A stretch of 64,000 nt of DNA. Origin: a bacterium (lineage in GTDB: Bacteria > Patescibacteriota > Minisyncoccia > Phycocordibacterales > Phycocordibacteraceae). Location: positions 65,266 to 129,265 of the forward strand of contig JAHFML010000002.1 in NCBI GenBank assembly GCA_023269085.1, written 5' to 3'. The notes below the pieces were generated by a model. The model saw only the letters and a program-made list of their open reading frames with translations. It did not search any database and was not told where the DNA came from. Of the stretch, positions 15,449 through 63,321 are shown piece after piece; within the stretch, counting starts at the first letter, position 1; every line of letters begins with the position of its first letter. The translations under genes and the position numbers were made by a program.

Positions 15449-15536
15449 TGCCGAGGGCGGGAATCGAACCCGCACGAGCCTATTAGAGCTCACGACATTT
15501 TAAGTGTCGAGTGTCTACCAATTTCACCACCTCGGC
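15449..15536 (-). tRNA. tRNA-Leu (anticodon TAA), class II
   Basis: Acceptor GCCGAGG/CCTCGGC, anticodon stem-loop CGACA-CUUAAAA-UGUCG, long variable arm, T-arm GGGTTCGATTCCCGC. Confidence 0.85.
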
Positions 15537-24630: not shown

Positions 24631-25261
24631 ACGACTCAATCTGAAGGGCTATCTCGTCATCAGTGCGGTGATTGTTCTCACGGTTGGTGTTGGTGTCCTT
24701 GTCTTCGTTGGCGCGACGAGCAATACCTCAACGACAGTTCCCACCGCGACCGGATTGCCGGTGGCAGGGCAGACACAACCGACGACTTCAGGATCACATG
24801 CTCAATCGGTGGCTCAAGGCTCGTTCGCCCCTGCGGCGGGAGGACAGACACAATCGGTATTGACGCTCGTTTCGCGCGCTGGCGGCACGATTGTAACTAA
24901 AGATTTCTTGCACAATGGCGAGACGGTTGCGGACGTGGTAAATCCAGGAACGTATGTGCTCGCGGGGAGTCTCGGCTATTGCACCGCGAGCGGTGTGTGC
25001 GGCGCGAATGCGTCAACGACTGATTTTTCGATTTCCTATGCGACGAGTACGCAATTCTTCAACATTATCCTTCTCGCCGAGCCGGTCGGCCTTGTGCGTT
25101 CCGCCGCCGAACGTTTTTTCCTTGCGCGTCTCGGCATTGGCGAACAAGCCGCTTGTGCGCTGAACTATTTTGTCGGTACACCCTACTGGGTCAACGAGTC
25201 GTACGATAACAAAAACCTCGGCTTCAGCTTCTGCCACGGTGCGACGGCTCTGCCGAAATAA
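24617..25261 (+). CDS. Hypothetical membrane-anchored secreted protein
   Basis: TM LVISAVIVLTVGVGVLVFV then Thr/Gly-rich and Cys-containing domain; start moved to ATG 24617. Confidence 0.4.
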   Translation: MPENKRLNLKGYLVISAVIVLTVGVGVLVFVGATSNTSTTVPTATGLPVAGQTQPTTSGSHAQSVAQGSFAPAAGGQTQSVLTLVSRAGGTIVTKDFLHNGETVADVVNPGTYVLAGSLGYCTASGVCGANASTTDFSISYATSTQFFNIILLAEPVGLVRSAAERFFLARLGIGEQAACALNYFVGTPYWVNESYDNKNLGFSFCHGATALPK

Positions 25262-26186
25262 ACTTGGACATCGGATGTCCAAGTTTGCGCAACCACGCCT
25301 TCTGGCGGCGAGCGTAGTGCCAGAGTCGGGCCGAGAGAATTGGGAGAAGGGAAGCTTCGTCGCGCTCATTGCGGAGGTACCCGCCAATGATGCGATACTC
25401 GAGCCCGAGCTCGGCGAGCCGCGCGTCGCCGACCTGCTCGCGGACGCGAGCGACCTCGTCGATAAGGCCGCGATCGAGCGCGCTCGCGAGCCGTGCGTCG
25501 ATGCGCGCGCGGAGCTCTTCTCGCGGCGGATCAATCACGATCCACTTCGAGCGATAGCGAGATCCCGAGTCTGTCGAGGGACGATTGCGGCGCGGGACAG
25601 AGCCAAGCGCGTCGATTATCTCGAGAGCGCGGATGAGTCGACGACGGTTGAGCGGGTCGAGCTCGGCGGCGCGACGTGCGTCGGCACGCTGCACCCGCGC
25701 ATACAGCTCTTCGGTCGGGAGCTGTTCGAGCTCGGCGCGAAGGCTCGGATTCGCGTCGACGCTGGCGGGGAGCCCGTGCAGAAGCGCATCAAAATAAAAA
25801 TGCGTCCCGCCCGCGAGGATCGGCAATTTGCCGCGGCTCGTTATCTCTTTGATAAGTCGCGTCGCGTCCTGCACGAAGTCGCCCGCAGAATAGGCATCGC
25901 TCGCGTCACGAATGTCGATAAGGTGGTGTTGCACCCCCTGCATCTCTTCGAGCGTAATCTTCTCGGTGCCGATATCGAGGCCGCGATATACCTGCCGCGA
26001 GTCGACCGAGATTATCTCGCCACCTCGCGCGAGCGCCTCCTGCACCGCGCGCGATGACTTGCCTGAAGCGGTCGGGCCCGCTATGCAGAGGATCCGTTCG
26101 CCAGCAGACTGGCTCAGGACGTCGCTTCGCTCCGTTTGTGCTGTCATTGGGGGCGATGGTATCATATATTGCATACGATTACTCAT
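25224..26186 (-). CDS. miaA: tRNA dimethylallyltransferase
   Basis: P-loop GPTASGKS, DSRQVYRGLDIGT, GGTHFYF; C-terminal tail carries a palindrome. Confidence 0.85.
   Translation of the reverse strand: MSNRMQYMIPSPPMTAQTERSDVLSQSAGERILCIAGPTASGKSSRAVQEALARGGEIISVDSRQVYRGLDIGTEKITLEEMQGVQHHLIDIRDASDAYSAGDFVQDATRLIKEITSRGKLPILAGGTHFYFDALLHGLPASVDANPSLRAELEQLPTEELYARVQRADARRAAELDPLNRRRLIRALEIIDALGSVPRRNRPSTDSGSRYRSKWIVIDPPREELRARIDARLASALDRGLIDEVARVREQVGDARLAELGLEYRIIGGYLRNERDEASLLPILSARLWHYARRQKAWLRKLGHPMSKFISAEPSHRGRS
25260..25286. repeat. Palindrome family C-related 27-nt perfect palindrome AAACTTGGACATCGGATGTCCAAGTTT
   Basis: Sits exactly at convergent gene ends: overlaps TAA of 24617..25261 and the last codons of miaA (encodes ...LGHPMSKF...). 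Confidence 0.8.
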
Positions 26187-28570: not shown

Positions 28571-29125
28571 ATGAGCAAGAAATACGCGAGCCTCGAAGAG
28601 AGGCTAGATGCATGGAGTGTAGAAAGGGACAACGGTTTTTGTTCTCCATGCAGAATCTGGATGGGATACGCTCAAAATGGCGCTCCGATGCCGAGAGGGA
28701 AAGAGGGCGGGTATCCAAGAATCAACATGCGGTACAGGGCTTCTGGAGAGGAAAAAGCGAAGTCACGCAAGTATCCCGCATATTGGGTCAGACGAGTTCT
28801 TTATGAAATATCAAAAATTGTTCCAGATTTTGATTCCAATAACCCGCAACATATGGAATCGTTCTGGGATCTCCTGTACGCTTATCGGTCGCTCGGCTTG
28901 ACCATCGAGCATGTTTGCAAGCACACTCTCTGTATAAACCCATTGCATTTAGATTGGGTGCCAATGGCTGAAAATAATGGCAGGAAGAGATGGTCAGAGG
29001 TGCGCAGGAGGAGCAGGATAGAGTCGAATCATAATGGCGTTGGTAGACACGCCGCTCTTATTCGAAACTCCGCGGGAGTGAAGGAATTTATCGAAAAAAT
29101 AAAGAAGAGCCGGCATTTAAAATAA
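28571..29125 (+). CDS. HNH endonuclease (HNH_3-type, homing-endonuclease-like) in a low-GC islet
   Basis: LTIEHVCKHTLCINPLHLDWVPMAEN; strong SD AAAGAGGTG 8 nt upstream; local GC clearly below genome average. Confidence 0.6.
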   Translation: MSKKYASLEERLDAWSVERDNGFCSPCRIWMGYAQNGAPMPRGKEGGYPRINMRYRASGEEKAKSRKYPAYWVRRVLYEISKIVPDFDSNNPQHMESFWDLLYAYRSLGLTIEHVCKHTLCINPLHLDWVPMAENNGRKRWSEVRRRSRIESNHNGVGRHAALIRNSAGVKEFIEKIKKSRHLK

Positions 29126-30779: not shown

Positions 30780-33206
30780 TTATTTCAAATATTCAGCCGC
30801 TTCAGCGGGAGTGAACGAAGTGGGCGAGACAGACTCGGGGAGATAGATGCGACGGAGACCTTTCTTCAAAAAGAGACCCTGCTTTGATTTGTAGAGCACG
30901 ATAGTCTTGCCGGTCTTGGGGTGCTTACCGATCTCTTGTACGATCTCGACGCCGCGCGGCGGCTGCTTCGGCGCGGCAAGGAGCGCGAGCGCCGTGTCGA
31001 GCGTGACCGTGTAGGGGTCGCCGATCGCGGGCTTGAGCGAGCGGAATTCGCCATCGCTCCCGACGTAGGGGCCGAAGCGGCCGGTCGAAGCGAAAACGGT
31101 TTTGCCGGTGCTTGGGTGCATCCCGAGCTCGCGCGGGAGCGAGAGATAGTGGAGCGCGTCGGCGAGGGTCACCTGCGAGAGGTCGGTGCCGGCGGGGATG
31201 CTCGCGCGCTTGGCGGCAACCTTCGGGCGACCCTTTGCGCGCTTCTTCGGTTTCTTCGATTCAAGGTTCGACCTTGAATCCGAATCCTTAAGGTCGGACC
31301 TTGGTTCGGGTTCGGGCAACGCCATCTCGACATATGGCCCGAAGCGACCCGTCTTGATATAAATAGGCGCGCCAGTCGTCGGGTCATTGCCAATGGGCTC
31401 GTCACCTTTGAGCTCGACGCCCTCTTCGGTGCGCGCACCGAGACAGTCGGGATACTTCTTACAGCTCATGAAGATGCCGCCGCGACCGAGCTTCAGCTCC
31501 ATCGGGCTCCCGCAGAGAGGGCAAGTGAATTCGGGCGACACTTCGCCGAGCGAGGTCGCCTTCGGGAGCTTATCTTTTTCCTTCACCTGTCTCTCAAAGG
31601 GGCCGTAAAATTCGGAGAGCGTCTCCTTGTAGCCGCGCTCGCCGCGCGCGATCTCGTCGAGCTCGTCCTCCATCGTTGCGGTGAAGGAGTCGCTGATGTA
31701 GGTCGCGAAGTTTTCTTCGAGCCAGCCCGAGACGACCATACCGGTCGCCGTCGGCTTCAAGGTGCGGCCGGTCTTCTCGACGTATTCGCGGTCCGAGAGC
31801 GTCTTCATCGTTGAGGCATAGGTCGAGGGGCGGCCGATGCCGCGCTTCTCGAGCTCCTTGATGAGGCCGGCCTCGGTGTAGCGGTTCGGCGGTTCGGTCT
31901 GCTTCTCCTCCTCGCCGAGCGAGAGGAGCGTGAGCGGGTCGCCCTTCGCCACGCGGGGTAATTCGACATCCTCACCCTTCGCTTTCGTGTCGAGTGCGAG
32001 CCAGCCCGGGAAGAGTGTCCGCGAGCCGGTCGCCGCGAAGAGCGGAATGTCGGCATCGGCCTTCGCCGAAATATTCGTTCGCATGATTTTCGCGCTTGCC
32101 ATCTGCGAGGCGAGCGTGCGAACACGGATGAGCTCGTAGAGCGCGTGTTCGTCGGGCGTCGCGCCGGCATGTCCGCATGCGGCATCGGTGGGGCGGATTG
32201 CTTCGTGCGCCTCCTGCGCGTTCTTGCTCGTCGTCTTGTAGGCGCGCGTCTGGGCATACTCTTTACCGAATTCTTGCTCGATGACCGTTATCATTTTCGC
32301 GACGGCTTCGGCACCGAGATTGACCGAGTCGGTGCGCATGTAGGTGATGTGGCCGGCTTCATAGAGCTTCTGTGCGGCCCGCATCGCGCGCGAGGGCGCG
32401 AAGCCGAGACGCGTCGACGCGACCTGTTGGAGCGTCGAGGTGGTGAAGGGCGGACGCGGGGATCGCTCCTCCGCCTTTTCTATAATGTCAGCGACCTGCC
32501 AAGCGGCGGCGCGACCGAGCCTCACGATGCGCCCTGCTTCTTCGCGCGTCGCGGGCTCCTCGACGCAGGTAGTCATCAAGGTCGAACCTTGAACTTCAAG
32601 GTTCGACCTTGATGACGAGAAGGAGGCACGGAGGACGAAATAGGTGACGGGCACGAACGCTTTGATCTCGCGCTCGCGTTCGGCGAGGATCCGGAGCGCG
32701 GGCGATTGCACGCGGCCGGCCGAGAGCCCGTAACGAACTTTCTTCCAGATGAGTCCCGAGAGATCATAGCCGACGATGCGGTCGAGCACGCGCCGCGCCT
32801 CTTGCGCCTGCCGCAAATCTTCGTCGATAGTGCGCGGGTGGGCAAGCGCCTCTTCGATAGCGGCCTTGGTAATCTCGTGGAAGGCGACGCGCTTGGGCTT
32901 CTTCAGCTTCGCCACCTCCTTGATATGCCAGGCGATAGCTTCGCCCTCGCGGTCGGGGTCGGTCGCGAGATACACCTCGTCGGCCTTGGCGGCTGCGGCC
33001 CGTATCTTCTCGATGATCTCCTGCTTCTCGGGCGGGATGATGTAGTGCGGCACGAAGCCGCCCTCGATATCGACCGCATCGATATTGCTCTTGGGCAAAT
33101 CGCGCACATGCCCGACCGAGGCCAAGACCGTGTAGCCTTTCCCGAGGTAGGTGCCGATAGTGCGCGCCTTGGTGGGCGACTCAACGATGAGAAGACGGTT
33201 CGTCAT
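30780..33206 (-). CDS. topA: DNA topoisomerase I, carrying two in-frame REP-A doublet insertions
   Basis: Toprim N-terminus MTNRLLIVESPTKARTI, catalytic domain, C-terminal zinc ribbons (CPLCGSPM...); insertions encode ...SSSRSNLEVQGSTLMTT... and ...RSDLKDSDSRSNLES... Confidence 0.9.
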   Translation of the reverse strand: MTNRLLIVESPTKARTIGTYLGKGYTVLASVGHVRDLPKSNIDAVDIEGGFVPHYIIPPEKQEIIEKIRAAAAKADEVYLATDPDREGEAIAWHIKEVAKLKKPKRVAFHEITKAAIEEALAHPRTIDEDLRQAQEARRVLDRIVGYDLSGLIWKKVRYGLSAGRVQSPALRILAEREREIKAFVPVTYFVLRASFSSSRSNLEVQGSTLMTTCVEEPATREEAGRIVRLGRAAAWQVADIIEKAEERSPRPPFTTSTLQQVASTRLGFAPSRAMRAAQKLYEAGHITYMRTDSVNLGAEAVAKMITVIEQEFGKEYAQTRAYKTTSKNAQEAHEAIRPTDAACGHAGATPDEHALYELIRVRTLASQMASAKIMRTNISAKADADIPLFAATGSRTLFPGWLALDTKAKGEDVELPRVAKGDPLTLLSLGEEEKQTEPPNRYTEAGLIKELEKRGIGRPSTYASTMKTLSDREYVEKTGRTLKPTATGMVVSGWLEENFATYISDSFTATMEDELDEIARGERGYKETLSEFYGPFERQVKEKDKLPKATSLGEVSPEFTCPLCGSPMELKLGRGGIFMSCKKYPDCLGARTEEGVELKGDEPIGNDPTTGAPIYIKTGRFGPYVEMALPEPEPRSDLKDSDSRSNLESKKPKKRAKGRPKVAAKRASIPAGTDLSQVTLADALHYLSLPRELGMHPSTGKTVFASTGRFGPYVGSDGEFRSLKPAIGDPYTVTLDTALALLAAPKQPPRGVEIVQEIGKHPKTGKTIVLYKSKQGLFLKKGLRRIYLPESVSPTSFTPAEAAEYLK
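31258..31304. repeat. REP family A doublet inside topA (GATTCAAGGTTCGACCTTGAATC ... AAGGTCGGACCTTGG)
   Basis: Two inverted REP units ~10 bp apart; reading frame of topA preserved. Confidence 0.85.
32574..32614. repeat. REP family A doublet inside topA: 41-nt perfect palindrome CATCAAGGTCGAACCTTGAAcTTCAAGGTTCGACCTTGATG
   Basis: Seen directly; frame preserved. Confidence 0.9.
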
Positions 33207-37160: not shown

Positions 37161-38186
37161 ATGTCATTCTGGCAGAAACTCCCGAAACCTTTTTTCGTCA
37201 TGGCGCCGATGGCAGATGTCACCGATGCCGCCTTCCGCGCGCTTATCGCGAGCCGCGCTGCGCCCGACGTTTTCTGGACCGAGTTCGTCTCGGCCGACGG
37301 GCTCTATCACACCCGCGAGATCGCACGGATGCCGGACAATGAGAACCCACTCATGCGCGACCTTTTGAAGAGCAGTGCGGAGCGGCCGATAGTCGCGCAG
37401 ATATTTTCAAACAAGCCGGAGATGATCGCGTATGCGACGCGCGTGGTTGCTGACCTTGGCTTCGACGGCGTCGATCTCAACATGGGCTGCCCTGATAGAG
37501 CGATAGAGCGGCAGGGGAGCGGTGCCGCGATGCTGAAGTCGCCGGAGGTAGCCCGCGCGGTAATCCGCGCGGCGAAGGGTGCGAGTAGCTTGCCCGTCAC
37601 GGTCAAGACGCGTGTCGGGTATAATCGCGAATCGCTCGATGAGTGGCTGCCCGTCTTGCTCGAAGAAGCGCCGGCCGCTATCACGCTGCACCTGCGCACA
37701 CGCAAAGAGTTGTCGCTCGTACCCGCGCAGTGGGAGCTCATGAAGAGGGCGGTCGCTCTTCGCGATAGCCTCAATCCTGACGTACTCCTTATCGGTAACG
37801 GCGATGTGACGAGTGTTGAGCAGGGTAAGCGGCTTGTCGATGAGACCGGTTGCGATGGCGTCATGATCGGCCGCGGCATGTTCGGCAATCCGTGGGTCTT
37901 TGAGGGATTGACGCGCACACCAAGGTCGGACCTTCGGTCCGAATTCTCAAGGTCCGACCTTGGTGTGCGCGAACATGGGCTCTCCGAAAAGCTCGAAGCT
38001 TTAGTTGAGCTCGCGCATAACTTCGAGAAGCTCTTGCCGCCCAAAAATTTCTCCATACTCAAGAAGCACATCAAAGCCTTTGCCACGGGCTTCGACGGCG
38101 CTGCCGATCTCCGCGCGCGCCTTATGCTCGCCGACTCTGCTACTGAGCTCGAAGGGATTGTTGCAGAATACGTAGATGGAGCGTAA
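37161..38186 (+). CDS. tRNA-dihydrouridine synthase (DusB-like) with an in-frame REP-A doublet insertion
   Basis: FFVMAPMADVTDAAFR, LNMGCP, TIM-barrel FMN motifs; insertion encodes ...LTRTPRSDLRSEFSRSDLGVRE... Confidence 0.85.
   Translation: MSFWQKLPKPFFVMAPMADVTDAAFRALIASRAAPDVFWTEFVSADGLYHTREIARMPDNENPLMRDLLKSSAERPIVAQIFSNKPEMIAYATRVVADLGFDGVDLNMGCPDRAIERQGSGAAMLKSPEVARAVIRAAKGASSLPVTVKTRVGYNRESLDEWLPVLLEEAPAAITLHLRTRKELSLVPAQWELMKRAVALRDSLNPDVLLIGNGDVTSVEQGKRLVDETGCDGVMIGRGMFGNPWVFEGLTRTPRSDLRSEFSRSDLGVREHGLSEKLEALVELAHNFEKLLPPKNFSILKKHIKAFATGFDGAADLRARLMLADSATELEGIVAEYVDGA
37918..37965. repeat. REP family A doublet inside dus gene: 48-nt hairpin CACCAAGGTCGGACCTT-cggtccgaattctc-AAGGTCCGACCTTGGTG
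   Basis: Seen directly; loop contains GAATTC as in the uvrB copy. Confidence 0.9.
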
Positions 38187-38544: not shown

Positions 38545-39576
38545 ATGGCTCACCAGTCGCTCTATCGCACGCATCGCCCAGCAACCTTTGCCGAGGTCGT
38601 GGGTCAAGAGCAGGTGACGCATCCGCTCGAGGAGGCGGTGAAGGCCGGGAAGATCGGCCACGCGTATCTCTTCGCCGGCAGTCGCGGTTTGGGCAAGACC
38701 AGCGTGGCGCGCATCTTCGCCGCCGCTATCGGCTGTGGCGAGCGCGATCTCTACGAGGTCGATGCCGCGAGCAACAACAGCGTCGAGGACATCCGTGCGC
38801 TCAGCGAGGGCGTCTACACTTTGCCTTTCGCGTCGCCGTATAAGGTCTACCTGCTCGATGAGGTGCACATGCTGAGCAAGGGCGCGTGGAATGCTTTTTT
38901 AAAAACGCTTGAGGAGCCGCCCGCGCATGCGGTCTTTATCCTCGCGACGACCGAGCTCGAGAAGGTTCCCGAGACCGTGCAGTCGCGCTGCCAGATTTTC
39001 GAATTCAAGAAGCCGACGCGCAAGGTGCTCGCCGAGATGACGGCGAAGGTCGCAAAGAAGGAGGGCTACACGCTCGAGAGCGACGCCGCCGAGCTCGTCG
39101 CGCTCTTGGCCGATGGCTCGTACCGCGATGCGCTCTCTATCTTGCAAAAGGTCGTTACGGGAACAGAAGAAAAAACCGTTTCGCGCCCGAGGGTCGAAGA
39201 GGTGACTGGCGCACCGCGGCAGAGCCAGGTGCAGGCGCTTGTCGCCGCGCTCGCCTCTGGCTCGCGCGCCACCGCACTTGTCGCTATCGAAGAAACCGCG
39301 CGCTCGGGCACCGACATGAAGCTCTACCTTGAGCTCGTGCTCTCGGCGTTGCGCTCAATACTGCTCATTCGCTATGCGCCCGACCTGCGCGCATCAATCA
39401 TGGCCGAGCTCGGTGCGGACGAATTCTCCGCCCTCGAAGAGATTGTAGGACTTACGAAGTCCCACATAACGCATGCGACACTTCTCGCCTTCCTCACCGC
39501 CGCCGATCGCATCCGCTATGCGCCCATCCCTGCGCTCCCGCTCGAGCTCGCGGTCTTGGAGCTCTTCCCCGAATGA
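38545..39576 (+). CDS. dnaX: DNA polymerase III subunit gamma/tau (short form)
   Basis: Walker A GSRGLGKTS, DEVHMLS, SKGAWNAFLKTLEEPP, sensor SRCQ; 343 aa. Confidence 0.85.
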   Translation: MAHQSLYRTHRPATFAEVVGQEQVTHPLEEAVKAGKIGHAYLFAGSRGLGKTSVARIFAAAIGCGERDLYEVDAASNNSVEDIRALSEGVYTLPFASPYKVYLLDEVHMLSKGAWNAFLKTLEEPPAHAVFILATTELEKVPETVQSRCQIFEFKKPTRKVLAEMTAKVAKKEGYTLESDAAELVALLADGSYRDALSILQKVVTGTEEKTVSRPRVEEVTGAPRQSQVQALVAALASGSRATALVAIEETARSGTDMKLYLELVLSALRSILLIRYAPDLRASIMAELGADEFSALEEIVGLTKSHITHATLLAFLTAADRIRYAPIPALPLELAVLELFPE

Positions 39577-40339: not shown

Positions 40340-41041
40340 GTGTTAGCTTTACCGAAAGAAAAAGCGCGTGCCGTACAGCTTCGCAAACAAGGTAAAACCT
40401 ATGGAGAAATTGCAAAGCAAATTCTGGTTTCTAAATCAACGCTTTCTCTTTGGTTGCGAGATGTTGAAGTGTCAGCAGAGTTTCTCTCTCGTATCCGACA
40501 AAAGAAATTAGATGCGGTCAAGAAGGGTTGGGAGGCGCGCAGGAAGGAGCGTATCGATCGAACGAAGCAGATTACTGATGCGGCACGAGAAGAAGTCTCG
40601 AAATTTTATAAACAGCCACTCTGGCTCGTTGGCGTAACTCTTTACTGGGCTGAAGGACATAAAGAAAAATCTTGGCGTCCGGGGGCACTCGTGACTTTCA
40701 CCAACATGGACGAAAATACGATAATTATCTTCAGAAATTGGTGTCGTAAATATATGGATGTCTCGGACGGTGATTTTGTTTACAGCCTCTATGTTCATGC
40801 TACTCACGAAATGCGGACGTTAGAAATAAAACAATGGTGGGCACGCAAACTCTCAATAAACCCTGATAGCATCGCCGTTTATTACAAGAAACATACAACA
40901 AAACACGTGCGTCATAATGACGACGATAACTATCATGGGGTTTGTCGTGTTCGTGTGAGGAAGAGTGTGGATATGAATCGGAGAATTGCTAGTTGGACAT
41001 CCGAAATGGTACGTTCACTGGAGGACAAAAATAAGCTATGA
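40340..41041 (+). CDS. Hypothetical HTH-domain protein (low-GC islet; possible homing-endonuclease-like)
   Basis: N-terminal HTH (TYGEIAKQILVSKSTLSLWLRD); ...LWLVGVTLYWAEGHK... faintly LAGLIDADG-like; clearly lower GC. Confidence 0.4.
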   Translation: MLALPKEKARAVQLRKQGKTYGEIAKQILVSKSTLSLWLRDVEVSAEFLSRIRQKKLDAVKKGWEARRKERIDRTKQITDAAREEVSKFYKQPLWLVGVTLYWAEGHKEKSWRPGALVTFTNMDENTIIIFRNWCRKYMDVSDGDFVYSLYVHATHEMRTLEIKQWWARKLSINPDSIAVYYKKHTTKHVRHNDDDNYHGVCRVRVRKSVDMNRRIASWTSEMVRSLEDKNKL

Positions 41042-41063
41042 TAGAGCCACTCGTGCTCACCGC

Positions 41064-41134
41064 TGGGGGATCGTCTAATGGTAGGACGACGGGTTTTGGT
41101 CCCGTTAATTTAGGTCCGAGTCCTAATCCCCCAG
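41064..41134 (+). tRNA. tRNA-Gln-like (anticodon TTG), atypical
   Basis: Manual fold: acceptor TGGGGGA/TCCCCCA with G73 (U1:A72/G73 as in E. coli tRNA-Gln), 3-bp D-stem, anticodon loop UUUUGGU, T-arm TTAGG-TCCGAGT-CCTAA; an alternative 8-9 bp acceptor register exists. Confidence 0.55.
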
Positions 41135-41260
41135 CAGTGTGCAGGAGACTCTAGGATCGTTCCCTAGCTCCCCAGCAAAGTCGTGCGAGGTTATCTCGCA
41201 CAAGACGCGTCAAATGGATGAGTTACTCAGAATATTGATATATGAGTTAGAATAAGCCCA

Positions 41261-42229
41261 ATGGAACAATTTTCTCATGCGCAAAAAGAATCTGGAATAA
41301 ACCGAGTTGTCGGATTCGATGCAGGACAGGAGAAAAAATTCTTACAGTATTTCAAAGATAAGTTTGAAACCAGATCTCCTGATTCAGGAGATAAAGAAAA
41401 AACATCCGAACAAGTGGCGCTGATTGACCGCACCAATAAGGAGATGCGAGATTTCTTGGCACGGTACAATATCAATGCCGTTGAGATCCCGGCGGATAAT
41501 GTTCATATACTCGATCGGTCGAAACTTACGCAAGAAGAACTTCGAGAGATTCAAAAAAGATTTGGCACTGAGAGTGGATTCTACTCAGCCTTTAAGCAAG
41601 GCGTCGCGATTATGAAAGATTACGATGTAAGCAAATTGTCGTTTCTGCAAACTCTTGTCCACGAGTCGCTCCATCTTCAGGGATTTTATTCGTATCAAAA
41701 GAGTTCTCGAGAGACTGCCGATTTTAGCGTGAAAAACGAAGATAACTCGGCAAGTTTGAACATCCGACGATCAGGATTCTCTATCGGCACAAAAGATGGT
41801 AAAAGACGGCTCTTCCATGAGATTAATGAATCTATTATCACGGAGCTACAAATTCGATTCGAGAACGCATACCTCGCGCAGTGGCCAGAGCTGAAAGAAG
41901 AATTAAAAGCTCGCGATGCCTGTATCGAACGAGTCGCAAAACGAGACAACGCACCAATAGAAGAAATACGGAAGGTTGTAGCGAGTTTCTCTGGATACGC
42001 ATGGGTAACCTATCCCTATAACGACGAGCGCCAGGAGTTTAATTCTCTGGTCGATGAGTTGTATACGAGAAACCAATCAGATTTTGAATCGCGAGAAGAT
42101 GTCTTTAATTTATTTGTTGAAGCAACAATGAATGGTCGTCTTCTCCCTGTCGCACGACTCATTGAGAAGACATTCGGTAAGGGAACATTTAGGACAATTG
42201 GTGTGAACAGTGCGAATAAGCACGACTAG
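41261..42229 (+). CDS. Hypothetical protein (low-GC islet; contains HESLH motif)
   Basis: ORF 322 aa; LVHESLHLQG could be an HExxH zinc site but no further support. Confidence 0.4.
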   Translation: MEQFSHAQKESGINRVVGFDAGQEKKFLQYFKDKFETRSPDSGDKEKTSEQVALIDRTNKEMRDFLARYNINAVEIPADNVHILDRSKLTQEELREIQKRFGTESGFYSAFKQGVAIMKDYDVSKLSFLQTLVHESLHLQGFYSYQKSSRETADFSVKNEDNSASLNIRRSGFSIGTKDGKRRLFHEINESIITELQIRFENAYLAQWPELKEELKARDACIERVAKRDNAPIEEIRKVVASFSGYAWVTYPYNDERQEFNSLVDELYTRNQSDFESREDVFNLFVEATMNGRLLPVARLIEKTFGKGTFRTIGVNSANKHD

Positions 42230-43328: not shown

Positions 43329-43718
43329 TTATTTCAGATAGAGAGAATGGAAACCGTCCTTGACGCGAGAAAAATCAGTATCATCTAGCGTGCCGAGTTT
43401 TGAGGACAAACGACGATAATCAATCGCTCGCGCTTGATGTAAACAAGCGGCCATGTCGCGTTCGTGCTGTCGGAATTTCACATACCAACTGCCTTCTCGC
43501 ACTTGAGTTGTCGTCGGGATGACAAAATAGAAACCGTGCGACAGCTTTTTCAAAATGATAACAGGGCGAGAAAATAACTTACTTTTCCCATTGACCTCAG
43601 AGCCGACATTTTCACCGAGACTTGCCCACCAAATATCTCCTTGCGATACTAGTGGCGGCTTGTGCTCGATAGCATGCAATCGTCCTTTGAGCCCTATCCA
43701 CTCGAGGAATTTTTTCAT
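43329..43718 (-). CDS. PemK/MazF-family toxin-like protein (no adjacent antitoxin ORF seen)
   Basis: QGDIWWASLGENVGSEVNGKSKLFSRPVIIL resembles the MazF/PemK N-terminal core; 3' region AT-rich. Confidence 0.55.
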   Translation of the reverse strand: MKKFLEWIGLKGRLHAIEHKPPLVSQGDIWWASLGENVGSEVNGKSKLFSRPVIILKKLSHGFYFVIPTTTQVREGSWYVKFRQHERDMAACLHQARAIDYRRLSSKLGTLDDTDFSRVKDGFHSLYLK

Positions 43719-57554: not shown

Positions 57555-58070
57555 ATGAATCCGATCCAGACTGGTATCGCTACCGCCCTCGCGCTCGTCG
57601 TTGTCGCCGTTTTCTTCTTCTTCCCGAGCTTGCTCCCCTTTGGCCAATCGGCACCGACAGAGCCAGCACAGGTGAGCGTCGCCGCTACCACTAATCAACA
57701 ACTAGCTTCAACCACTATGCCAACAGAAAATGTTACCGATCTCCAGATAACCGACGAGACCATCGGCACTGGCGCCGTCGCCGCCGCGGGCGACACCGTT
57801 ACGGTCAACTATGTCGGTGCGCTCACGAACGGTACCGTCTTTGACGCTTCGGCGAATCACGGCTCGACCGGCTTCACCTTCCCGCTTGGGGCAGGGCAGG
57901 TTATCAAGGGTTGGGACATGGGCGTCGCAGGGATGAAGGAGGGTGGCAAGCGCAAGCTCGTCATCCCGGCCTCGCTTGCCTATGGCGACCGCGCGGTAGG
58001 GAATGTCATCCCGGCAAGTGCGACGCTCATCTTCGAGGTCGAGCTCGTGAAGGTGCAGAAAGGGAAGTAA
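57555..58070 (+). CDS. FKBP-type peptidyl-prolyl cis-trans isomerase (membrane-anchored/secreted)
   Basis: GDTVTVNYVGALTNGTVFDAS...FTFPLGAGQVIKGWDMGVAGMKEGGKRKLVIPASLAYG FKBP signature. Confidence 0.9.
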   Translation: MNPIQTGIATALALVVVAVFFFFPSLLPFGQSAPTEPAQVSVAATTNQQLASTTMPTENVTDLQITDETIGTGAVAAAGDTVTVNYVGALTNGTVFDASANHGSTGFTFPLGAGQVIKGWDMGVAGMKEGGKRKLVIPASLAYGDRAVGNVIPASATLIFEVELVKVQKGK

Positions 58071-58119
58071 CCAAGGTTCGACCTTAAGAAATTTGGGCCA
58101 AAGGTCGAACCTTGGTTAC
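58067..58119. repeat. REP family A doublet forming a 19-bp-stem hairpin GTAACCAAGGTTCGACCTT-loop-AAGGTCGAACCTTGGTTAC
   Basis: Starts inside the FKBP stop codon; a second GC hairpin terminator follows. Confidence 0.9.
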
Positions 58120-58869: not shown

Positions 58870-59922
58870 ATGATGATTTCTGCACGAGAACAAAAAATAC
58901 TCGCCTTGCTTGGTAGCCGCGACTCGGCGCAGTCTTCGGCTATACGCGATGCGCTCGTCGCGCGGGGTGATGACGCGTCGCTTGTTACGGTCAAGCGGGC
59001 GCTCTCTGCCATGGTCGCGCGCGGTCTGCTCGTCGCGACCGGCTCAGGCCGATCCTCGGCGTATCAGATCGCTAGCGTCGGCCGCATCTTCGCCAGTATC
59101 GATGCTCGCGCTTATTGTGCGATTGATCCTGATCGCCGGGCCGGTTTGCAGGGATATAATCGTGCGCTCTTCGCCCTGATGCCCGAGGATCTTTTTTCTG
59201 ACAAGGAGCAAGCGTCGTTCGCGCTCGCGACGACAGAATATGCGCGCCGATCTCTGAATGTGCCGAGAGCGATAGCGAAGAAGGAGCTCGAACGGCTCGT
59301 GGTCGAACTCTCATGGAAGTCGTCAAAGATAGAAGGCAACACCTATACGCTTCTCGACACGGAGCGCCTCATCCTCGAGAACAAAGAAGCGGTCGGACAT
59401 TCTCGGAGCGAGGCCCAGATGATACTCAATCACAAAGACGCTTTCGCTTTCGTGCGGGAGAATGCACCCTCCTTCCTCTCGGTGTCGCGGGCGCGTATCG
59501 AAGATCTGCACGCGATCTTGATACGAGACTTAGGCGTGGGGACTGGCCTGCGCACGCGCGCGGTCGGGATCACGGGGTCGGTCTATCAGCCGCTCGATAA
59601 TCAGCATCAGATCCGCGAAGGGTTTGACGCGCTCATAGCCGCCATCGGTCGCGCGCATACGCCGTATGATAAGGCGCTTCTCGCCATACTGGGCATAAGC
59701 TATCTCCAGCCGTTTGAAGACGGCAACAAGCGCACAGCGCGCCTCCTCGCTGACGCGCTTCTGCTCGCGCACGGGTGCGCGCCGCTCTCGTATAGGAGCG
59801 TCGAAGAAGAAGAGTATCGCGAAGCCCTGCTGGTATTCTACGAGATGAATTCGATTGCCCCGTTCAAGAAGATATTTATCGAGCAGTACGATTTCGCAGC
59901 GCGTAATTATACGGTCGCATGA
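58870..59922 (+). CDS. Fic/Doc-family protein with N-terminal winged-HTH; motif variant QPFEDGNKRTAR
   Basis: Fic core ...YLQPFEDGNKRTARLLADALL...; the canonical catalytic His of HPFx[DE]GN[GK]R is Gln here. Confidence 0.7.
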   Translation: MMISAREQKILALLGSRDSAQSSAIRDALVARGDDASLVTVKRALSAMVARGLLVATGSGRSSAYQIASVGRIFASIDARAYCAIDPDRRAGLQGYNRALFALMPEDLFSDKEQASFALATTEYARRSLNVPRAIAKKELERLVVELSWKSSKIEGNTYTLLDTERLILENKEAVGHSRSEAQMILNHKDAFAFVRENAPSFLSVSRARIEDLHAILIRDLGVGTGLRTRAVGITGSVYQPLDNQHQIREGFDALIAAIGRAHTPYDKALLAILGISYLQPFEDGNKRTARLLADALLLAHGCAPLSYRSVEEEEYREALLVFYEMNSIAPFKKIFIEQYDFAARNYTVA

Positions 59923-61214
59923 GCGCGATGAAATTTGAGATAGAGAAGCGCGCGGCCGGCTCTACCGGCCGCGCGGGGCTCATCACGACGCCGCACGGCG
60001 TCATCCGTACGCCTGCCTTCTCGCCGGTCGGGACCAAGGCGAGTGTGAAGGGCATCTTCCCGAGTCAGCTGAAGGCGCTCGGTGCCGAAGTCGTCCTCGC
60101 GAACACCTATCATCTCTATCTCCAGCCCGGCGAGAAGGTGGTCGAGCAGGCGGGCGGCCTCGCGAAGTTCATGGGCTGGGAGGGCTCGTCCCGCGGATCT
60201 TCAGCGGGATGGGGGCCGACCATCACCGACTCGGGCGGCTTCCAAGTCTTCTCGCTCGGCGCGGCCTTTGGTAAAACTATTTCCAAATTCACTCGCGAGG
60301 ATCCCGTGGGTGGACACCTAGTGTCCACCCACGGGCTGGCGCATTTCGATCCTGATGTGGCGAGTCAGCACGGTCAGCTCGCTATCATCGACGACGAGGG
60401 CGTCACCTTCACCTCACACCTCGACGGCTCCTTGCATCGCTTCACGCCCGAGCGCTCGGTCGAGATCCAGCACGCGCTCGGCGCAGACATCTTCTTCGCT
60501 TTCGACGAGTGTACTTCGCCCTCTGAGCCCTATGAATATCAGCGCGAAGCGATGGAGCGCACGCACCGCTGGGCCGAGCGCAGCTTGCAGGCGCATCGGC
60601 AAAATCTTGCGGCAAGAGAGAAACAAGCGCTCTTCGGCATCGTGCAGGGCGGCCGGCACGAAGACTTGCGGCGCGAGTCGGCGCGCGCTATCGCCGCCAT
60701 GGGCTTCGACGGCATCGGTATCGGCGGGTCATTCAGTAAAGAGGACATGCGCGGCGCCCTTGGCGCCGCGGTGGGCGAGCTCCCCGAAGAGCTCCCGCGT
60801 CACTTCCTCGGTATCGGCGAGCCGGGCGATATTCTCGAGGGCATTGCGGGCGGGATGGACCTCTTCGACTGCGTCGCCGCAACGCGCATCGGCCGCCACG
60901 GCTCGATCTATACCCGTCGCGGCATCATCCACCTGACCGGCGAGCGATACAAAGACGACTTCTCGCTGCTCGATCCCGAAATGTCGGACATATCATGTCC
61001 AACATCTGATGTTGGACATGATATGTCCGACATTTTCACGCGCGCGTATGTCGCGCACCTCATCCGCTCTAAAGAGATGCTCGGCTCGACGATCTGCTCG
61101 ATGCACAATCTCGGCTTCATCCTCAACCTCGTCGCGGGAGCGCGCCAAGCTATCCTCGACGGTCGCTTCGATTCCTACCGCGCCGACTTCGTGCGAGACT
61201 ATTACCATGGCTAA
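59919..61214 (+). CDS. tgt: Queuine tRNA-ribosyltransferase with two in-frame palindrome insertions
   Basis: VLANTYHLYLQPGE, FAFDEC (catalytic Asp), zinc site near FDCVAATRIGRHG; insertions encode ...EDPVGGHLVSTHGLAHF... and ...EMSDISCPTSDVGHDMSDIF... Confidence 0.9.
   Translation: MSAMKFEIEKRAAGSTGRAGLITTPHGVIRTPAFSPVGTKASVKGIFPSQLKALGAEVVLANTYHLYLQPGEKVVEQAGGLAKFMGWEGSSRGSSAGWGPTITDSGGFQVFSLGAAFGKTISKFTREDPVGGHLVSTHGLAHFDPDVASQHGQLAIIDDEGVTFTSHLDGSLHRFTPERSVEIQHALGADIFFAFDECTSPSEPYEYQREAMERTHRWAERSLQAHRQNLAAREKQALFGIVQGGRHEDLRRESARAIAAMGFDGIGIGGSFSKEDMRGALGAAVGELPEELPRHFLGIGEPGDILEGIAGGMDLFDCVAATRIGRHGSIYTRRGIIHLTGERYKDDFSLLDPEMSDISCPTSDVGHDMSDIFTRAYVAHLIRSKEMLGSTICSMHNLGFILNLVAGARQAILDGRFDSYRADFVRDYYHG
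60303..60335. repeat. Palindrome family B: 33-nt CCCGTGGGTGGACACCTAGTGTCCACCCACGGG inside tgt
   Basis: Seen directly; frame preserved. Confidence 0.9.
60979..61035. repeat. Palindrome family C: 57-nt perfect palindrome (AAATGTCGGACATATCATGTCCAACATC t GATGTTGGACATGATATGTCCGACATTT) inside tgt
   Basis: Checked base by base: left arm is the exact reverse complement of the right arm; contains the GGACATGATATGTCC unit shared with 18997-19011. Confidence 0.9.
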
Positions 61215-63321
61215 CTTCAAACTCCACACTCCCTACCAGCCGGCAGGCGACCAGCCGGCGGCTATCGCGGCGCTCGAGAGCGGACTCGAGGCGGGCATGC
61301 GCCATCAGACGCTCTTTGGCGTGACGGGCTCGGGCAAGACCTTCACCATCGCGAACGTCATCGCAGCGCATGACAAGCCGACCCTCGTCCTCGCACACAA
61401 CAAGACCCTCGCGGCCCAGCTCGCGCAAGAGTATCGCGAATTCTTTCCCGAGAACGCCGTCCACTATTTTGTCTCTTACTACGACTACTATCAGCCCGAG
61501 GCCTATATCGCGCACTCCGACACCTACATCGAGAAGGAAGCAATGATAAACGCCGAGATTGATCGCCTCCGCCACGCGGCAACGCAAGCGCTTCTCACGC
61601 GCAAGGACGTCATCATCGTCGCGTCGGTCTCGGCGATCTACGGGCTTGGCTCGCCGGCAGAATATGAGAAGGTGCACGTGAAGATTGAGAAGGGCGCCGC
61701 GGAGGATCGCGCGGCGCTGATCCGCAAGCTCGTGGGTATCCACTTCGAACGCACGCCTGCCGACTTGAACCCTGGTCAGGTGCGCGCTATCGGGAACTCG
61801 CTCGAGCTGATGCCGGTCAACGAGCGCGTTATCTATCGCGTCGCTTTCGAGGGCGACACGATTGTGCGCATTGATCAGCTCGACCCGATCTCGCGCGCAC
61901 TTGTCGCGTCGCCCTCGTCTATTTTCATATTTCCCGCGAAGCACTTCATCACGAGCGAAGCAGAGCGGGTACGCGCGATCGAGGACATCAAGCTCGAACT
62001 CGATGGGCAATTGGCGAAGTTCAAGAGGGAAGCGAAGCCGCTTGAAGCCGAACGCTTGAAACGCCGCACCTTGAGCGACCTCGCGCTCATCCGCGAGATG
62101 GGTTATACCAACGGTATCGAAAATTATTCGCGCCACTTCGACGGTCGCAAGAGCGGCGAGCCGCCCTTCACGCTTCTTTCATACTTCCCACACCGGAATC
62201 AAGGTCGAACCTTACATACGAATTCTCAAGGTTCGACCTTGATTCCGGATTTCCTTACCATCATCGACGAGTCTCACGTGACGGTCCCGCAGCTCGGCGG
62301 CATGTACGCGGGCGATCGCTCACGCAAGGACGTGCTCGTCGAATACGGCTTCAGGCTCCCTTCGGCGCGCGACAATCGGCCGCTCAACTTCGAAGAGTTC
62401 GAAGAGCGTGTTGGGCAGGTTATCTATACGAGCGCAACGCCGGGCCCCTATGAGCGCGCACATGCTGAGCAGGTAGTCGAGCAAGTCATCCGCCCGACGG
62501 GCCTCATCGACCCGGAGCTCGTCATCCGCCCGGTGTCTGGGGAGGCGGGTGGACACCTAGTGTCCACCCATTTAGACACTAGGTGTCCACCCGCCTCCTA
62601 TCGCGGGCAGGTGGCGAACTTTATCAGTGAAGCCGAGGTCGTCATCAAGCGCGGCGGCCGCGCGCTCGCAACCACGCTCACCAAGCAGATGGCCGAAGAC
62701 CTCTCCTCATTCTTGCGCGAGAAAGGTATAAAAGCCGAGTATCTCCACTCTGACGTGAAGACGATCGACCGCATCGACATCCTCACCAAGTTCCGCAAGG
62801 GCGAGTTCGATATTCTCGTCGGCGTCAACCTGCTTCGCGAAGGACTCGACTTGCCCGAGGTCGAGCTCGTCGGCATCCTCGACGCGGACAAAGAAGGCTT
62901 CTTGCGCAGTGAGACCTCGCTCATCCAGACTATCGGCCGTGCCGCGCGCAACGTGCTCGGCCGCGTGATTCTCTATGCCGACGTGATGACCAAGTCGCTC
63001 GAGAAGGCTATTGGCGAGACCAATCGCCGCCGCGCGCTCCAAGTGGCCTACAACGAGAAGCACAGCATCACGCCGAAGACGATTCACAAAGAGATTCGCG
63101 ACATCGCTGCGAGCATGCGGAGCGACCACCAGAAGACGATTGACGAACTTCTGGTGCTCGACACGCTCGCGTACAAGGATGATCCGAAGGCTTTTGTCGC
63201 GCGTAAGCGAGAGGAGATGGCCGAAGCGGTCGAGAAGCTCGACTTCGAAACCGCCGCGCTTATTCGCGACGAGCTCTTCAAGCTTGAGGACGGCGGGTCG
63301 AAAGGGAAGAAGAAACGGTAA
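61207..63321 (+). CDS. uvrB: Excinuclease ABC subunit B with two in-frame palindrome insertions
   Basis: Walker A GVTGSGKTFT, helicase motifs, C-terminal UvrB/UvrC-interaction helix (LIRDELFKLE); start moved to ATG 61207; insertions encode ...HRNQGRTLHTNSQGSTLIPD... and ...GEAGGHLVSTHLDTRCPPASYRG... Confidence 0.9.
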   Translation: MANFKLHTPYQPAGDQPAAIAALESGLEAGMRHQTLFGVTGSGKTFTIANVIAAHDKPTLVLAHNKTLAAQLAQEYREFFPENAVHYFVSYYDYYQPEAYIAHSDTYIEKEAMINAEIDRLRHAATQALLTRKDVIIVASVSAIYGLGSPAEYEKVHVKIEKGAAEDRAALIRKLVGIHFERTPADLNPGQVRAIGNSLELMPVNERVIYRVAFEGDTIVRIDQLDPISRALVASPSSIFIFPAKHFITSEAERVRAIEDIKLELDGQLAKFKREAKPLEAERLKRRTLSDLALIREMGYTNGIENYSRHFDGRKSGEPPFTLLSYFPHRNQGRTLHTNSQGSTLIPDFLTIIDESHVTVPQLGGMYAGDRSRKDVLVEYGFRLPSARDNRPLNFEEFEERVGQVIYTSATPGPYERAHAEQVVEQVIRPTGLIDPELVIRPVSGEAGGHLVSTHLDTRCPPASYRGQVANFISEAEVVIKRGGRALATTLTKQMAEDLSSFLREKGIKAEYLHSDVKTIDRIDILTKFRKGEFDILVGVNLLREGLDLPEVELVGILDADKEGFLRSETSLIQTIGRAARNVLGRVILYADVMTKSLEKAIGETNRRRALQVAYNEKHSITPKTIHKEIRDIAASMRSDHQKTIDELLVLDTLAYKDDPKAFVARKREEMAEAVEKLDFETAALIRDELFKLEDGGSKGKKKR
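62193..62248. repeat. REP family A doublet inside uvrB: 21-bp-stem hairpin CCGGAATCAAGGTCGAACCTT-acatacgaattctc-AAGGTTCGACCTTGATTCCGG
   Basis: Seen directly. Confidence 0.9.
62541..62597. repeat. Palindrome family B composite (two GGTGGACAC/GTGTCCACC units, outer arms GGAGGCGGG/CCCGCCTCC) inside uvrB
   Basis: GGAGGCGGGTGGACACCTAGTGTCCACCCatttaGACACTAGGTGTCCACCCGCCTCC. Confidence 0.85.

Follow-up and report, generated by a model that had tools for sequence, protein, structure and literature searches.

Probable REP/REPIN-type hairpin elements in frame within tgt and other genes of a Candidatus Kaiserbacteria-like bacterium

Two in-frame palindromes in the tgt gene

The window, that is the whole stretch of 64,000 nucleotides that was analysed, belongs to a genome described as Candidatus Kaiserbacteria-like, and its hairpin elements and associated genes are collected in Table 1. 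One of these genes is tgt, whose product matches the Pfam TGT family over its full length (E 1.1e-119). The best homologues are Tgt proteins from Candidatus Kaiserbacteria / Paceibacterota, the nearest (P0002) at 88%, and the equivalents of D102 and D280 are retained in an alignment to Z. mobilis TGT. The reading frame contains two palindromes, both in frame.

Table 1. Positions of the hairpin elements and of the genes that contain or adjoin them (strand "." where none applies).
Feature	Position	Strand	Context
RAYT1, RAYT-like Y1 transposase gene	1681-2391	-	between family-D palindromes at 1650-1676 and 2408-2438
Third family-D copy	3054-3076
RAYT2, RAYT-like Y1 transposase gene	8491-9150	-	family-A hairpins on either side (8475-8487, 9172-9194), inverted to each other
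Family-A unit	8981-8993		in frame inside RAYT2
Family-C unit followed by family-B unit	18992-19039	+	in frame in class-V aminotransferase / cysteine desulfurase gene (iscS), 18517-19680
GGACAT-CGG-ATGTCC hairpin	25260-25286	.	C-terminal tail of miaA (25224-26186, minus strand)
Second family-A pair in topA	31258-31302
Family-A doublet	32572-32616	.	in frame in topA (30780-33206, minus strand)
Family-A doublet	37912-37971	.	in frame in dus (37161-38186, +)
Family-E unit GGACTTACGAAGTCC	39448-39462	.	inside ORF 38545-39576, dnaX-like by its sequence only
Family-A doublet	58067-58119	.	intergenic
tgt, tRNA-guanine transglycosylase	59919-61214	+	ORF of 431 aa, harbours both palindromes
Lineage-specific insertion of 30 nt, GSSRGSSAGW (10 aa)	60183-60212 (approx.)	+	third in tgt; weak, degenerate hairpin only
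33-nt perfect palindrome, single family-B unit	60303-60335	.	core GGGTGGACAC-CTA-GTGTCCACCC; encodes PVGGHLVSTHG
57-nt perfect palindrome, family-C REPIN-like doublet	60979-61035	.	in tgt; encodes (E)MSDISCPTSDVGHDMSDI(F)
Left REP unit of the 57-mer, ATGT-C-GGACATATCATGTCC-A-ACAT	60981-61005	-	imperfect hairpin, one C/A mismatch; inverse of the right unit
Right REP unit of the 57-mer, ATGT-T-GGACATGATATGTCC-G-ACAT	61009-61033	+	T/G mismatch
Family-A inverted doublet	62193-62248	.	in frame in uvrB
Family-B inverted doublet	62541-62598	.	in frame in uvrB (61207-63321)
Family-E doublets	just past window edge (contig L001)		in uvrA and uvrC

The longer element is, as had been claimed, a perfect palindrome around one T (at 61007), with two arms of 28 nt that are 100% complementary. 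It folds into a hairpin of -30.3 kcal/mol as single-stranded DNA (z -12.6) and of -43.1 as RNA. Within it two inverted REPs are joined by C-T-G, i.e. it is a REPIN or REP doublet. The original prediction described its translation as almost a peptide palindrome, which is wrong in detail: owing to the DNA symmetry, reading either strand in that frame gives one and the same peptide, with a quasi-direct repeat, MSDI...MSDI, inside.

The shorter element also has perfect arms, of 15 nt around the 3-nt loop CTA (-19.2 kcal/mol as single-stranded DNA). It is one unit of a sister subfamily, with inner stem GGACAC and outer stem GGGT/ACCC, and is located in a loop that varies in a clade-specific manner and in other orthologues holds different palindrome-encoded peptides. 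The insertion GSSRGSSAGW, at a site that we call site 1, was considered as a third palindrome and rejected, its fold being no better than that of shuffled sequences (z -1.0). In a codon-aligned comparison it is missing from the relatives L128 and L002.

The comparison with orthologues that had been proposed shows a baseline Tgt of 405-409 aa that has neither palindrome. Compared with the loop of this baseline, the 57-mer replaces about 8 residues for a net gain of 10 aa, and its site aligns with the CxCxxC zinc loop of Z. mobilis TGT. An AlphaFold model built from 29 close sequences only is of mediocre quality (mean pLDDT 63.6); its residues 61-154 are unreliable, and as the family-B site falls within them the model is uninformative there. 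Residues 358-371, at the C insert, have pLDDT below 50 and are flanked by confident helices. The inserts are presumably translated without harm to Tgt.

Perfect inverted repeats are a known class of artefact, and the palindromes might be products of assembly or amplification, such as inverted chimeras. Against this, an independent ENA contig (L001) matches with 100% identity across 12.7 kb spanning both palindromes, the same architecture occurs in more than 10 unrelated metagenome assemblies, the units are multi-copy and the reading frame is always preserved. We regard an artefact as extremely unlikely.

Families of hairpin units

Counts of the units refer to 79 kb of readable sequence: the window with 7.9 kb to its left and 7.2 kb to its right. 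This sequence contains about 35 hairpin units. In place of the extragenic location typical of REPs, about 26 of them are found in coding sequence (tgt, uvrA/B/C, topA, dus, iscS, miaA and dnaX). Families A and D are present also in intergenic DNA and beside transposase genes. The original prediction counted three hairpin families; the number has to be raised to at least five, A to E.

The basic unit is a hairpin of about 25 nt. Its loop has 3 nt, its inner stem is GGACnn/nnGTCC and its outer stem ATGTy/rACAT. Doublets of families A, B and E share the construction of the 57-mer, in which inverted units give one long hairpin, and the family-A doublets have a homologous 14-nt spacer in common. 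The pair in iscS folds as two adjacent hairpins.

The number of copies is far above chance. The family-C unit GGACATGATATGTCC is found at 61014-61028, as its reverse complement at 60986-61000 and, exactly as had been noted, at 18997-19011 in the cysteine desulfurase gene: three matches against 0.05 expected. With one variant these make up the family in the 79 kb. For the family-B unit GGTGGACACCTAGTGTCCACC there are exact matches at 19018, 60309 and 62548 and a partial one at 62571 (0.00 expected). Family A has 15 copies against 0.17 expected. Counting perfect hairpins with stems of 10 or more gives 21 in the window and 0.4 in Markov simulations, and the longest stem is 28 against 11 by chance. 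A search of the window with Rfam and ARAGORN detected tRNAs only, and no known RNA family over the elements.

Further, the complementarity of the stems is maintained through compensatory changes. The inner stems vary in this way (GGACAT, GGACGT, GGGTTT), and at sites of the form GGACnn-nnn-nnGTCC the nn positions are complementary in 56 of 64 cases, where 4 are expected. The outer arms are perfectly complementary in every doublet yet differ from copy to copy: examples are AAATG/CATTT here and GAAA/TTTC in L002, and for family-A doublets CCGGAATC, GTCATC and CGCGCACACC.

Transposase genes paired with the hairpins

The original prediction overlooked the identity of the elements: they are probably hairpins of the REP/REPIN type associated with RAYT-like Y1 transposase genes. 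The window has two such genes. These two, RAYT1 and RAYT2, are IS200-like Y1 genes, each placed between copies of its own hairpin family, which is the REP-RAYT signature. A third type, RAYT3, is found in relatives; in L125, L126 and L127 its neighbours are the L25 gene on one side and the aldolase gene on the other. There the hairpin CATGT-x-GGACGT-nnn-ACGTCC-x'-ACATG stands upstream, downstream and in frame inside the gene. Contig L085 carries a RAYT3 gene together with a GGACAT-type doublet. Each RAYT family is paired with a hairpin family of its own.

Both window genes exceed the Pfam cut-off for Y1_Tnp, RAYT2 with 41.9 bits (cut-off 23) and RAYT1 with 30.9 bits; RAYT3 alone falls under it, and is 38% identical to RAYT2 (E 4e-23). 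The best NCBIfam match of all three is REP_Tyr_transpos, in each case under the curated cut-off (E 1.9e-13 for RAYT2). Across 24 aligned sequences there is no variation at the HUH histidines and at two tyrosines. When solved structures were searched with a profile from the RAYT alignment, nothing came up at E 0.01 or better, and the single-sequence match to E. coli TnpA-REP (4ER8) reaches only E 0.28.

Orthologues of the RAYT genes are 65-84% identical. Those of RAYT2 in L006, L007 and L008 are flanked and interrupted by the same hairpins, and the gene is syntenic beside gyrA in the window, L006 and L007. Judged from gene order, the synteny of RAYT2 and RAYT3 is consistent with single-copy vertical inheritance and not with a multi-copy IS. 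In both, orthologues keep the gene's own hairpin in frame and at the same conserved position, which hints at regulation.

The assignment of families B and C is less direct. The left REP unit of the 57-mer has the architecture of the hairpins that flank RAYT3. These flanking hairpins, present in L125, L126, L127 and L085, and the ones inside RAYT3 are nearly always of the GGACGT type, whereas the inner stems in this genome are GGACAT, GGACAC and GGACTT, and the outer stem of family B (GGGT/ACCC) also differs from the RAYT3 hairpin. Tagged REP superfamilies carry the tetranucleotide GTAG or CGTC at one foot of their hairpin. Here GTAG is seen in one family-D copy, that at 2408-2438 (CGTAGTATCG...), and in the RAYT3 hairpin of L125 (ATGTAGGACGT); the B and C units in tgt have none. 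The candidate cognate gene, one of the RAYT3 type, was not found in the 79 kb read, and its expected locus lies beyond. Judged from hairpin architecture, families B and C may be mobilised by an enzyme of the RAYT3 type encoded in this genome, with the specificity of the enzyme assumed. To our knowledge, no direct in vivo demonstration of RAYT-driven REP transposition exists for any organism.

Comparison with relatives

In the syntenic relative L128 there are no such hairpins in tgt, uvrB, uvrA or uvrC. The four proteins are shorter by 22, 20, 39 and 26 aa (Tgt, UvrB, UvrA and UvrC), and the gaps coincide exactly with the units. An alignment of 29 Tgt sequences has three hot spots, occupied by differing palindrome-encoded peptides. 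Similarly, the site of the B doublet in uvrB holds nothing in L128 and a C-type doublet in L002.

Evidence of mobility is given by a 47-nt core, TCGGACAT...ATGTCCGA, which is identical at tgt site 3 here and at tgt site 2 in the MAG nzgw457. The two tgt genes have 71% nucleotide identity, and only 48% at third codon positions, i.e. their synonymous sites are saturated. The same element is therefore seen at different sites, and different elements at the same site. The earlier proposal of repeated families inserted in frame, by recent insertion or homogenisation, is supported by this mobile core, by the multi-copy units and by the baseline Tgt.

The 19-mer TTGGACATGATATGTCCGA of the right C unit is found again at 18995-19013 in iscS, and two other CPR-like MAGs have it as well. 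A scan for the C unit in a genome collection, from which the genome of the window is absent, gave four matches, of which two are relevant (L002 and L004). The match in L003 (Kineothrix) looks like chance and that in L005 (labelled Acetobacter), with a palindromic flank, is ambiguous. Family B was seen in this genome only. A scan of metagenomes for the 17-nt centre gave 114 loci, of which about 100 have arms of only 8-10 nt and match by chance. Ten doublets that share this centre were found in other long ORFs from independent metagenomes; one of the hosts is tgt, and the remaining ones, read from flanking peptides, are tsaD, transketolase, tatD and dprA. With two in L002 and the one here this makes 13 C-type doublets.

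The arms are hairpins in their own right: the internal 6-bp stem is perfect in 12 of the 13 doublets with perfectly matching arms, against 1 of the 105 other matches to the centre motif. This single case (L043) has 14 of 15 positions matching between its arms and the inner stem GGAGGT, and is probably a real doublet too.

The frame encoding PTSDVG is used in all 13 C-type doublets, although the second frame is often free of stops as well. This is what one would expect if the peptide D-x-x-x-PTSDVG-x-x-x-S were a selected protein motif and the DNA symmetry incidental. However, the palindromy is perfect even at synonymous positions, families A and D are intergenic and beside transposase genes too, the host proteins and sites are unrelated, and the insert is disordered in the predicted Tgt structure. 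Selection for the peptide is thus very unlikely, and a simpler reason for the bias would be that selection disfavours the alternative frame, which is hydrophobic (VQHLMLDMICP).

A target-site signature was sought by aligning the codons here to those of the empty sites in L128, and none was found. At both C sites the net gain is 10 aa, so the events are replacements and not simple insertions. This, together with the lack of a visible direct-repeat target duplication and with outer arms that match within but not between copies, could speak for palindromes formed locally, without a transposase, by intra-strand template switching or fold-back synthesis at a seed hairpin. Neighbouring sequence would then be copied inverted, giving perfect arms in hypervariable loops. 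A local process cannot produce the identical 47-nt core at different sites in synonymously saturated genomes; nor does it agree with the same units in unrelated genes, the spacer common to family-A doublets or the hairpin families that flank their own RAYT genes. As the origin of the elements we give it a small chance. It may nevertheless explain how a single unit becomes a doublet and how perfect arms are kept.

The hairpins could also be used by the host, as protein sites (gyrase, nucleoid proteins), as signals for DNA uptake or recombination, or as mRNA structures tuning translation or stability, their spread being secondary. That a close syntenic relative does without them in the same four genes is difficult to reconcile with such a use, as are positions that vary between genomes, unrelated host genes and the absence of any positional logic relative to gene starts or ends. 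Still, proposals of a role in the host exist for classical REPs (PMC3733652), the preserved stem complementarity and the high stability of the RNA and DNA hairpins are as expected for a functional structure, and RAYT2 and RAYT3 retain their hairpin. We consider host use quite unlikely as the main explanation; it is compatible with the elements being mobile.

Proposed mechanism and significance

Taken together, the palindromes in tgt are likely to be REP/REPIN-type elements, hairpin repeats that multiply within the genome. A RAYT-like HUH/Y1 tyrosine transposase would recognise the folded hairpin on single-stranded DNA, cut and rejoin it, and so produce copies at new places. Because the genome has almost no intergenic space, most surviving copies would be intragenic. 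Selection would spare only those that preserve the reading frame in tolerant surface loops, and the retained copies would be read in the stop-free frame that gives the hydrophilic peptide ...D-x-x-x-PTSDVG-x-x-x-S...

A broader reading is possible but should be taken as tentative. In Kaiserbacteria-like CPR bacteria the REPIN-RAYT system may have shifted from intergenic to coding DNA and become a main source of lineage-specific loops in core enzymes. Hot spots would be reused and exchanged between families, the structural zinc loop of Tgt would have been overwritten, and each RAYT would control itself through its own in-frame hairpin.

Elements of this kind would account for odd low-complexity insertions in core CPR proteins, and length variation among Tgt and UvrABC orthologues would reflect mobile DNA, not adaptation. 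They may skew alignments, trees and structure predictions. Further, assemblies are probably interrupted at the hairpins: many of the contigs with a RAYT gene are very short, and one of them, L085, stops within a hairpin. REPIN-like elements under protein-level selection are a natural case in which the target choice of RAYTs and the tolerance of enzymes to loop insertions could be tested.

Comparison with known systems

Rickettsia palindromic elements (RPE) resemble the present ones in working. The classical RPE-1 is about 100-150 bp long, while the elements here are of 25-57 nt and in another host, i.e. RPE-like but not members. We know of no transposase linked to RPEs, whereas RAYT-like genes here adjoin the same hairpins. 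Common to both are a reduced genome, insertion in frame and translation as extra surface segments. In the account of Ogata et al. 2000 given in PMC3733652, RPEs are palindromic selfish repeats in frame in essential genes.

The coding palindromes of Nematomorpha mitochondria (PMC6649704) are likewise perfect in-frame inverted repeats in conserved genes with both arms coding; they are however mitochondrial, up to 284 bp long, and not dispersed multi-copy families with a transposase. A MITE, with a non-palindromic body between terminal inverted repeats and with direct target-site duplications, was ruled out, since the whole element is a hairpin and its flanks are inverted rather than direct repeats.

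REP/REPIN elements with RAYT transposases, alongside which Nunvar 2010 is reportedly to be named, share more features. The REPIN/RAYT concept is described by Bertels & Rainey 2011 (PMC3116915) and Bertels 2017 (PMC5581495). As in that system, short hairpin repeats are multi-copy, units paired in inverted orientation can form a single long hairpin, the Y1/HUH genes are syntenic and flanked on both sides by their own hairpin family, and there are several RAYT-hairpin pairs per genome. On the other hand, classical REPINs are almost all extragenic, and about three quarters of the units here are coding and translated. The units are also shorter, with a spacer of only 3 nt in the C doublet, the RAYT genes contain their own hairpin in frame, and the proteins are very divergent and under the curated family cut-off. 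The host, too, is different: a search of the literature on CPR, Patescibacteria or Kaiserbacteria with REP, RAYT or palindromes gave no relevant report.

The intragenic location itself has precedents. Di Nocera et al. 2013 (PMC3733652) described GTAG/CGTC-tagged REPs, single or as dimers, in frame and adding about 20-30 aa, many of them in uvrA, uvrB and other repair genes. The elements here are alike in this, in hitting uvrA, uvrB and other DNA-repair or nucleic-acid enzymes strikingly often, and in hitting one gene repeatedly. They differ in that intragenic copies are a minority in those genomes, which include no CPR genomes, and in that the GTAG tag is restricted to family D and one RAYT3 hairpin (L125). 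In-frame intragenic hairpin repeats are a known phenomenon, of which we describe a further case, and because PMC3733652 accepts intragenic REPs as members, we file the elements as REP/REPIN-like with an atypical distribution.

Palindromes in tgt and related hairpins

The original prediction placed two in-frame palindromes in tgt, the larger one perfect around a single central T, and both are there (see the table). They are not a one-off artefact of assembly, because a separate ENA assembly (contig L001) shows 100% identity over 12.7 kb, both palindromes included. In the window, the family-C unit GGACATGATATGTCC occurs 3 times vs 0.05 expected, and the family-B 21-mer has 3 exact occurrences vs 0.00 expected. 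Perfect hairpins with stems of 10 or more number 21 in the window, compared with 0.4 in simulations, and the longest stem is 28, compared with 11 by chance. The observation thus stands.

Coordinates of tgt, its palindromes, the RAYT genes and their internal hairpins (window positions unless a locus is named)
Feature	Position	Strand	Description
tgt ORF	59919-61214	+	431 aa; Pfam TGT match across full length, E 1e-119
57-nt palindrome in tgt	60979-61035		28-nt arms, 100% complementary, single central T
33-nt palindrome in tgt	60303-60335		15-nt arms, CTA loop
RAYT1	1681-2391	minus	between two family-D palindromes, one with GTAG tag
RAYT2	8491-9150	minus	between two family-A units in inverted orientation
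Internal hairpin of RAYT2	8981-8993; also L006 10158, L007 6257, L008 10158	gene on minus	loci L006-L008 carry RAYT2 orthologues
Internal hairpin of RAYT3	L125 1960-1994; L126 10147-10175; L127 10167-10197		loci L125-L127 carry RAYT3

In 79 kb of sequence (the window, 7.9 kb to its left and 7.2 kb to its right) we counted about 35 units of five families, arranged singly or as inverted doublets. The cores are AAGGTYSRACCTT (A), GGACAC-CTA-GTGTCC (B), GGACAT-nnn-ATGTCC (C), GTATCGAAGTC-n-GACTTCGATAC (D) and GGACTT-nnn-AAGTCC (E); family B (in full GGGT-GGACAC-CTA-GTGTCC-ACCC) and family E are other inner-stem variants of the GGAC...GTCC design. About 26 of the about 35 units are intragenic, and the host genes are tgt, uvrB, uvrA, uvrC, topA, dus, miaA, a cysteine desulfurase-like gene, a dnaX-like gene and a transposase gene.

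Using the hairpins that flank RAYT3, a transposase gene of other genomes, as a template, the 57-mer is parsed as AA [ATGT-C-GGACAT-ATC-ATGTCC-A-ACAT] C-T-G [ATGT-T-GGACAT-GAT-ATGTCC-G-ACAT] TT. Judged by its sequence, it is a REPIN-type doublet, in which one hairpin with slight imperfections occurs twice, the copies being inverted relative to each other. Its centre CCAACATCTGATGTTGG, coding for PTSDVG, is the junction of two conserved outer stems, which explains why it is found again from genome to genome whereas the inner stems differ. Metagenomes scanned for this centre yielded 114 loci, of which about 100 are chance matches and 10 are perfect 43-nt doublets. A perfect internal 6-bp stem is present in 12 of the 13 doublets with perfectly matching arms vs 1 of the 105 other matches, and the stem changes among doublets are compensatory (GGACAT, GGACGT, GGGTTT, and GGAGGT in the near-perfect doublet L043). 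The C-type doublets share one reading frame, PTSDVG, in 13 of 13 cases; it is always free of stops and its peptide is hydrophilic and rich in turns. The other open frame encodes a hydrophobic peptide. Within a doublet the outer arms match perfectly, yet they differ between copies.

Insertions in Tgt and mobility

The closest Tgt homologues come from Candidatus Kaiserbacteria / Paceibacterota MAGs (CPR), where baseline orthologues have 405-409 aa. In an alignment of 29 orthologues, three hot spots contain insertions that differ by lineage, many of them resembling translated palindromes. In the syntenic relative L128, which has an 83% identical Tgt and no such hairpins, Tgt, UvrB, UvrA and UvrC are shorter by 22, 20, 39 and 26 aa, respectively, and the alignment gaps fall on hairpin units of the window genome. 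Its 10.7 kb FKBP-tgt-uvrB-uvrA-uvrC locus contains no hairpins of families A-E; the only 2 hairpins there (2811-2840 and 10676-10695) are unrelated. Since so close a relative is without family hairpins, the hairpin load, as read from these sequences, differs sharply among related genomes.

When aligned to Z. mobilis TGT, the 57-mer falls on the CxCxxC zinc-binding loop of the bacterial enzyme. The aligned Kaiserbacteria-like orthologues lack these three zinc-ligand cysteines, or have a single Cys in one subgroup, and retain the histidine and the catalytic aspartates. The zinc loop (window 60964-61050, residues about 349-377) has turned into a hot spot for hairpin insertions. The AlphaFold model of Tgt is mediocre overall; the C insert (residues 358-371) has pLDDT <50, with confident helices on either side.

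A third lineage-specific insertion of 10 aa, GSSRGSSAGW (60183-60212), is located at a hot spot with other inserts in orthologues. It folds only into a weak, degenerate structure, perhaps the remains of a decayed hairpin element. Further, a Fic-domain gene (58870-59922) with an N-terminal winged-helix-like region overlaps the tgt start by 4 nt; it is missing at the matching position in L128 and in the contig of the closest Tgt relative.

The tgt gene of MAG nzgw457 carries an identical 47-nt core at hot spot 2, vs hot spot 3 in the window. Nucleotide identity between the two tgt genes is 71% overall and 48% at third positions. One uvrB site has a B doublet in the window genome and a C-type doublet in nzgw457, another has A doublets in both, and L128 has no doublet at either. 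Therefore one element occupies different sites, and one site accommodates different elements, a pattern that fits mobile elements filtered by protein tolerance. The multi-copy families, the insertions relative to orthologues, the positional variation between genomes and the preserved hairpin structure are all shown.

RAYT genes and a possible mechanism

Two window genes, RAYT1 and RAYT2, exceed the Pfam threshold as IS200-like Y1 transposases. RAYT2 orthologues in three other genomes have a matching hairpin arrangement, two of the three being syntenic next to gyrA. The third paralogue, RAYT3, was found on a metagenome contig, beside a C-type doublet, and lies between the L25 and aldolase genes in three genomes, flanked upstream and downstream by CATGT-x-GGACGT-nnn-ACGTCC-x'-ACATG; nearly all its hairpins are of GGACGT type. 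RAYT genes are thereby paired with family A, family D and the GGACGT type; REP-associated tyrosine transposases are recognised operationally by such a hairpin-flanked arrangement (PMC5581495).

The coding sequences of RAYT2 and RAYT3 also each contain an in-frame copy of the cognate hairpin, conserved across orthologues and in place, with the N-terminal motif on one side and the HUH motif on the other. It is translated as QGRTL or QGSTL in RAYT2 orthologues, so the hairpin loop has flipped in some lineages, and as G-R-x-T-S with a variable loop codon in RAYT3. This could reflect self-regulation or self-targeting.

RAYT1 and an adjacent alpha/beta-hydrolase gene (1681-3023) lie between an S1-domain gene and pth, with all three family-D palindromes of the window grouped around the insertion. 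Both genes are missing from the matching interval of L007 (12340-12395); in L006 RAYT1 is also missing and two unannotated ORFs are found instead. Between the L25 and aldolase genes of L008 there is no RAYT3 gene and a lone GGGACGT-type hairpin (13872-13900), which may have been left behind when the gene was lost. Many contigs with RAYT2 or RAYT3 are very short, and one terminates within the internal hairpin (L085, 7798-7817); hairpin repeats probably fragment CPR assemblies.

A putative RAYT3-type enzyme of the window genome would act on single-stranded DNA of the B and C units. No RAYT3 was seen in the 79 kb, and the outer stem of family B differs from the RAYT3 hairpin type. Doublet events resemble replacements, with a net +10 aa. 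Because of this, and of the perfect but copy-specific outer arms, fold-back copying may contribute to making or repairing doublets. No target motif was found at the insertion sites.

Other features of the window are a stretch of low GC3 (40340-42229; 0.41 vs about 0.75 elsewhere), which may be foreign DNA and in which tRNA-Gln (41064-41135) is flanked by one ORF with an HTH domain and another that has no Pfam match; an HNH endonuclease ORF (15490-16026) overlapping the end of tRNA-Leu within a tRNA cluster; an ORF weakly matching a His-Me homing-endonuclease zinc-loop (28571-29125); and a MazF/PemK-like toxin gene (43329-43718) adjoining a glutamate dehydrogenase gene.

Comparison with known systems

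REPs and REP dimers that lie in frame and code for 20-30 aa are already known from genomes including Opitutus terrae, Rickettsia conorii and Thioalkalivibrio, where they notably favour uvrA, uvrB and further repair genes (PMC3733652). The tgt hairpins therefore belong to a known phenomenon: the finding is genuine and explained, and does not represent a new type of system. Its value is that of an example case and an annotation warning, of moderate interest. A literature search found no CPR reports of such elements. Compared with the published in-frame REPs, the window genome belongs to a different phylum, its intragenic copies predominate, the RAYTs are very divergent, and RAYT2 and RAYT3 keep an in-frame hairpin copy across orthologues.
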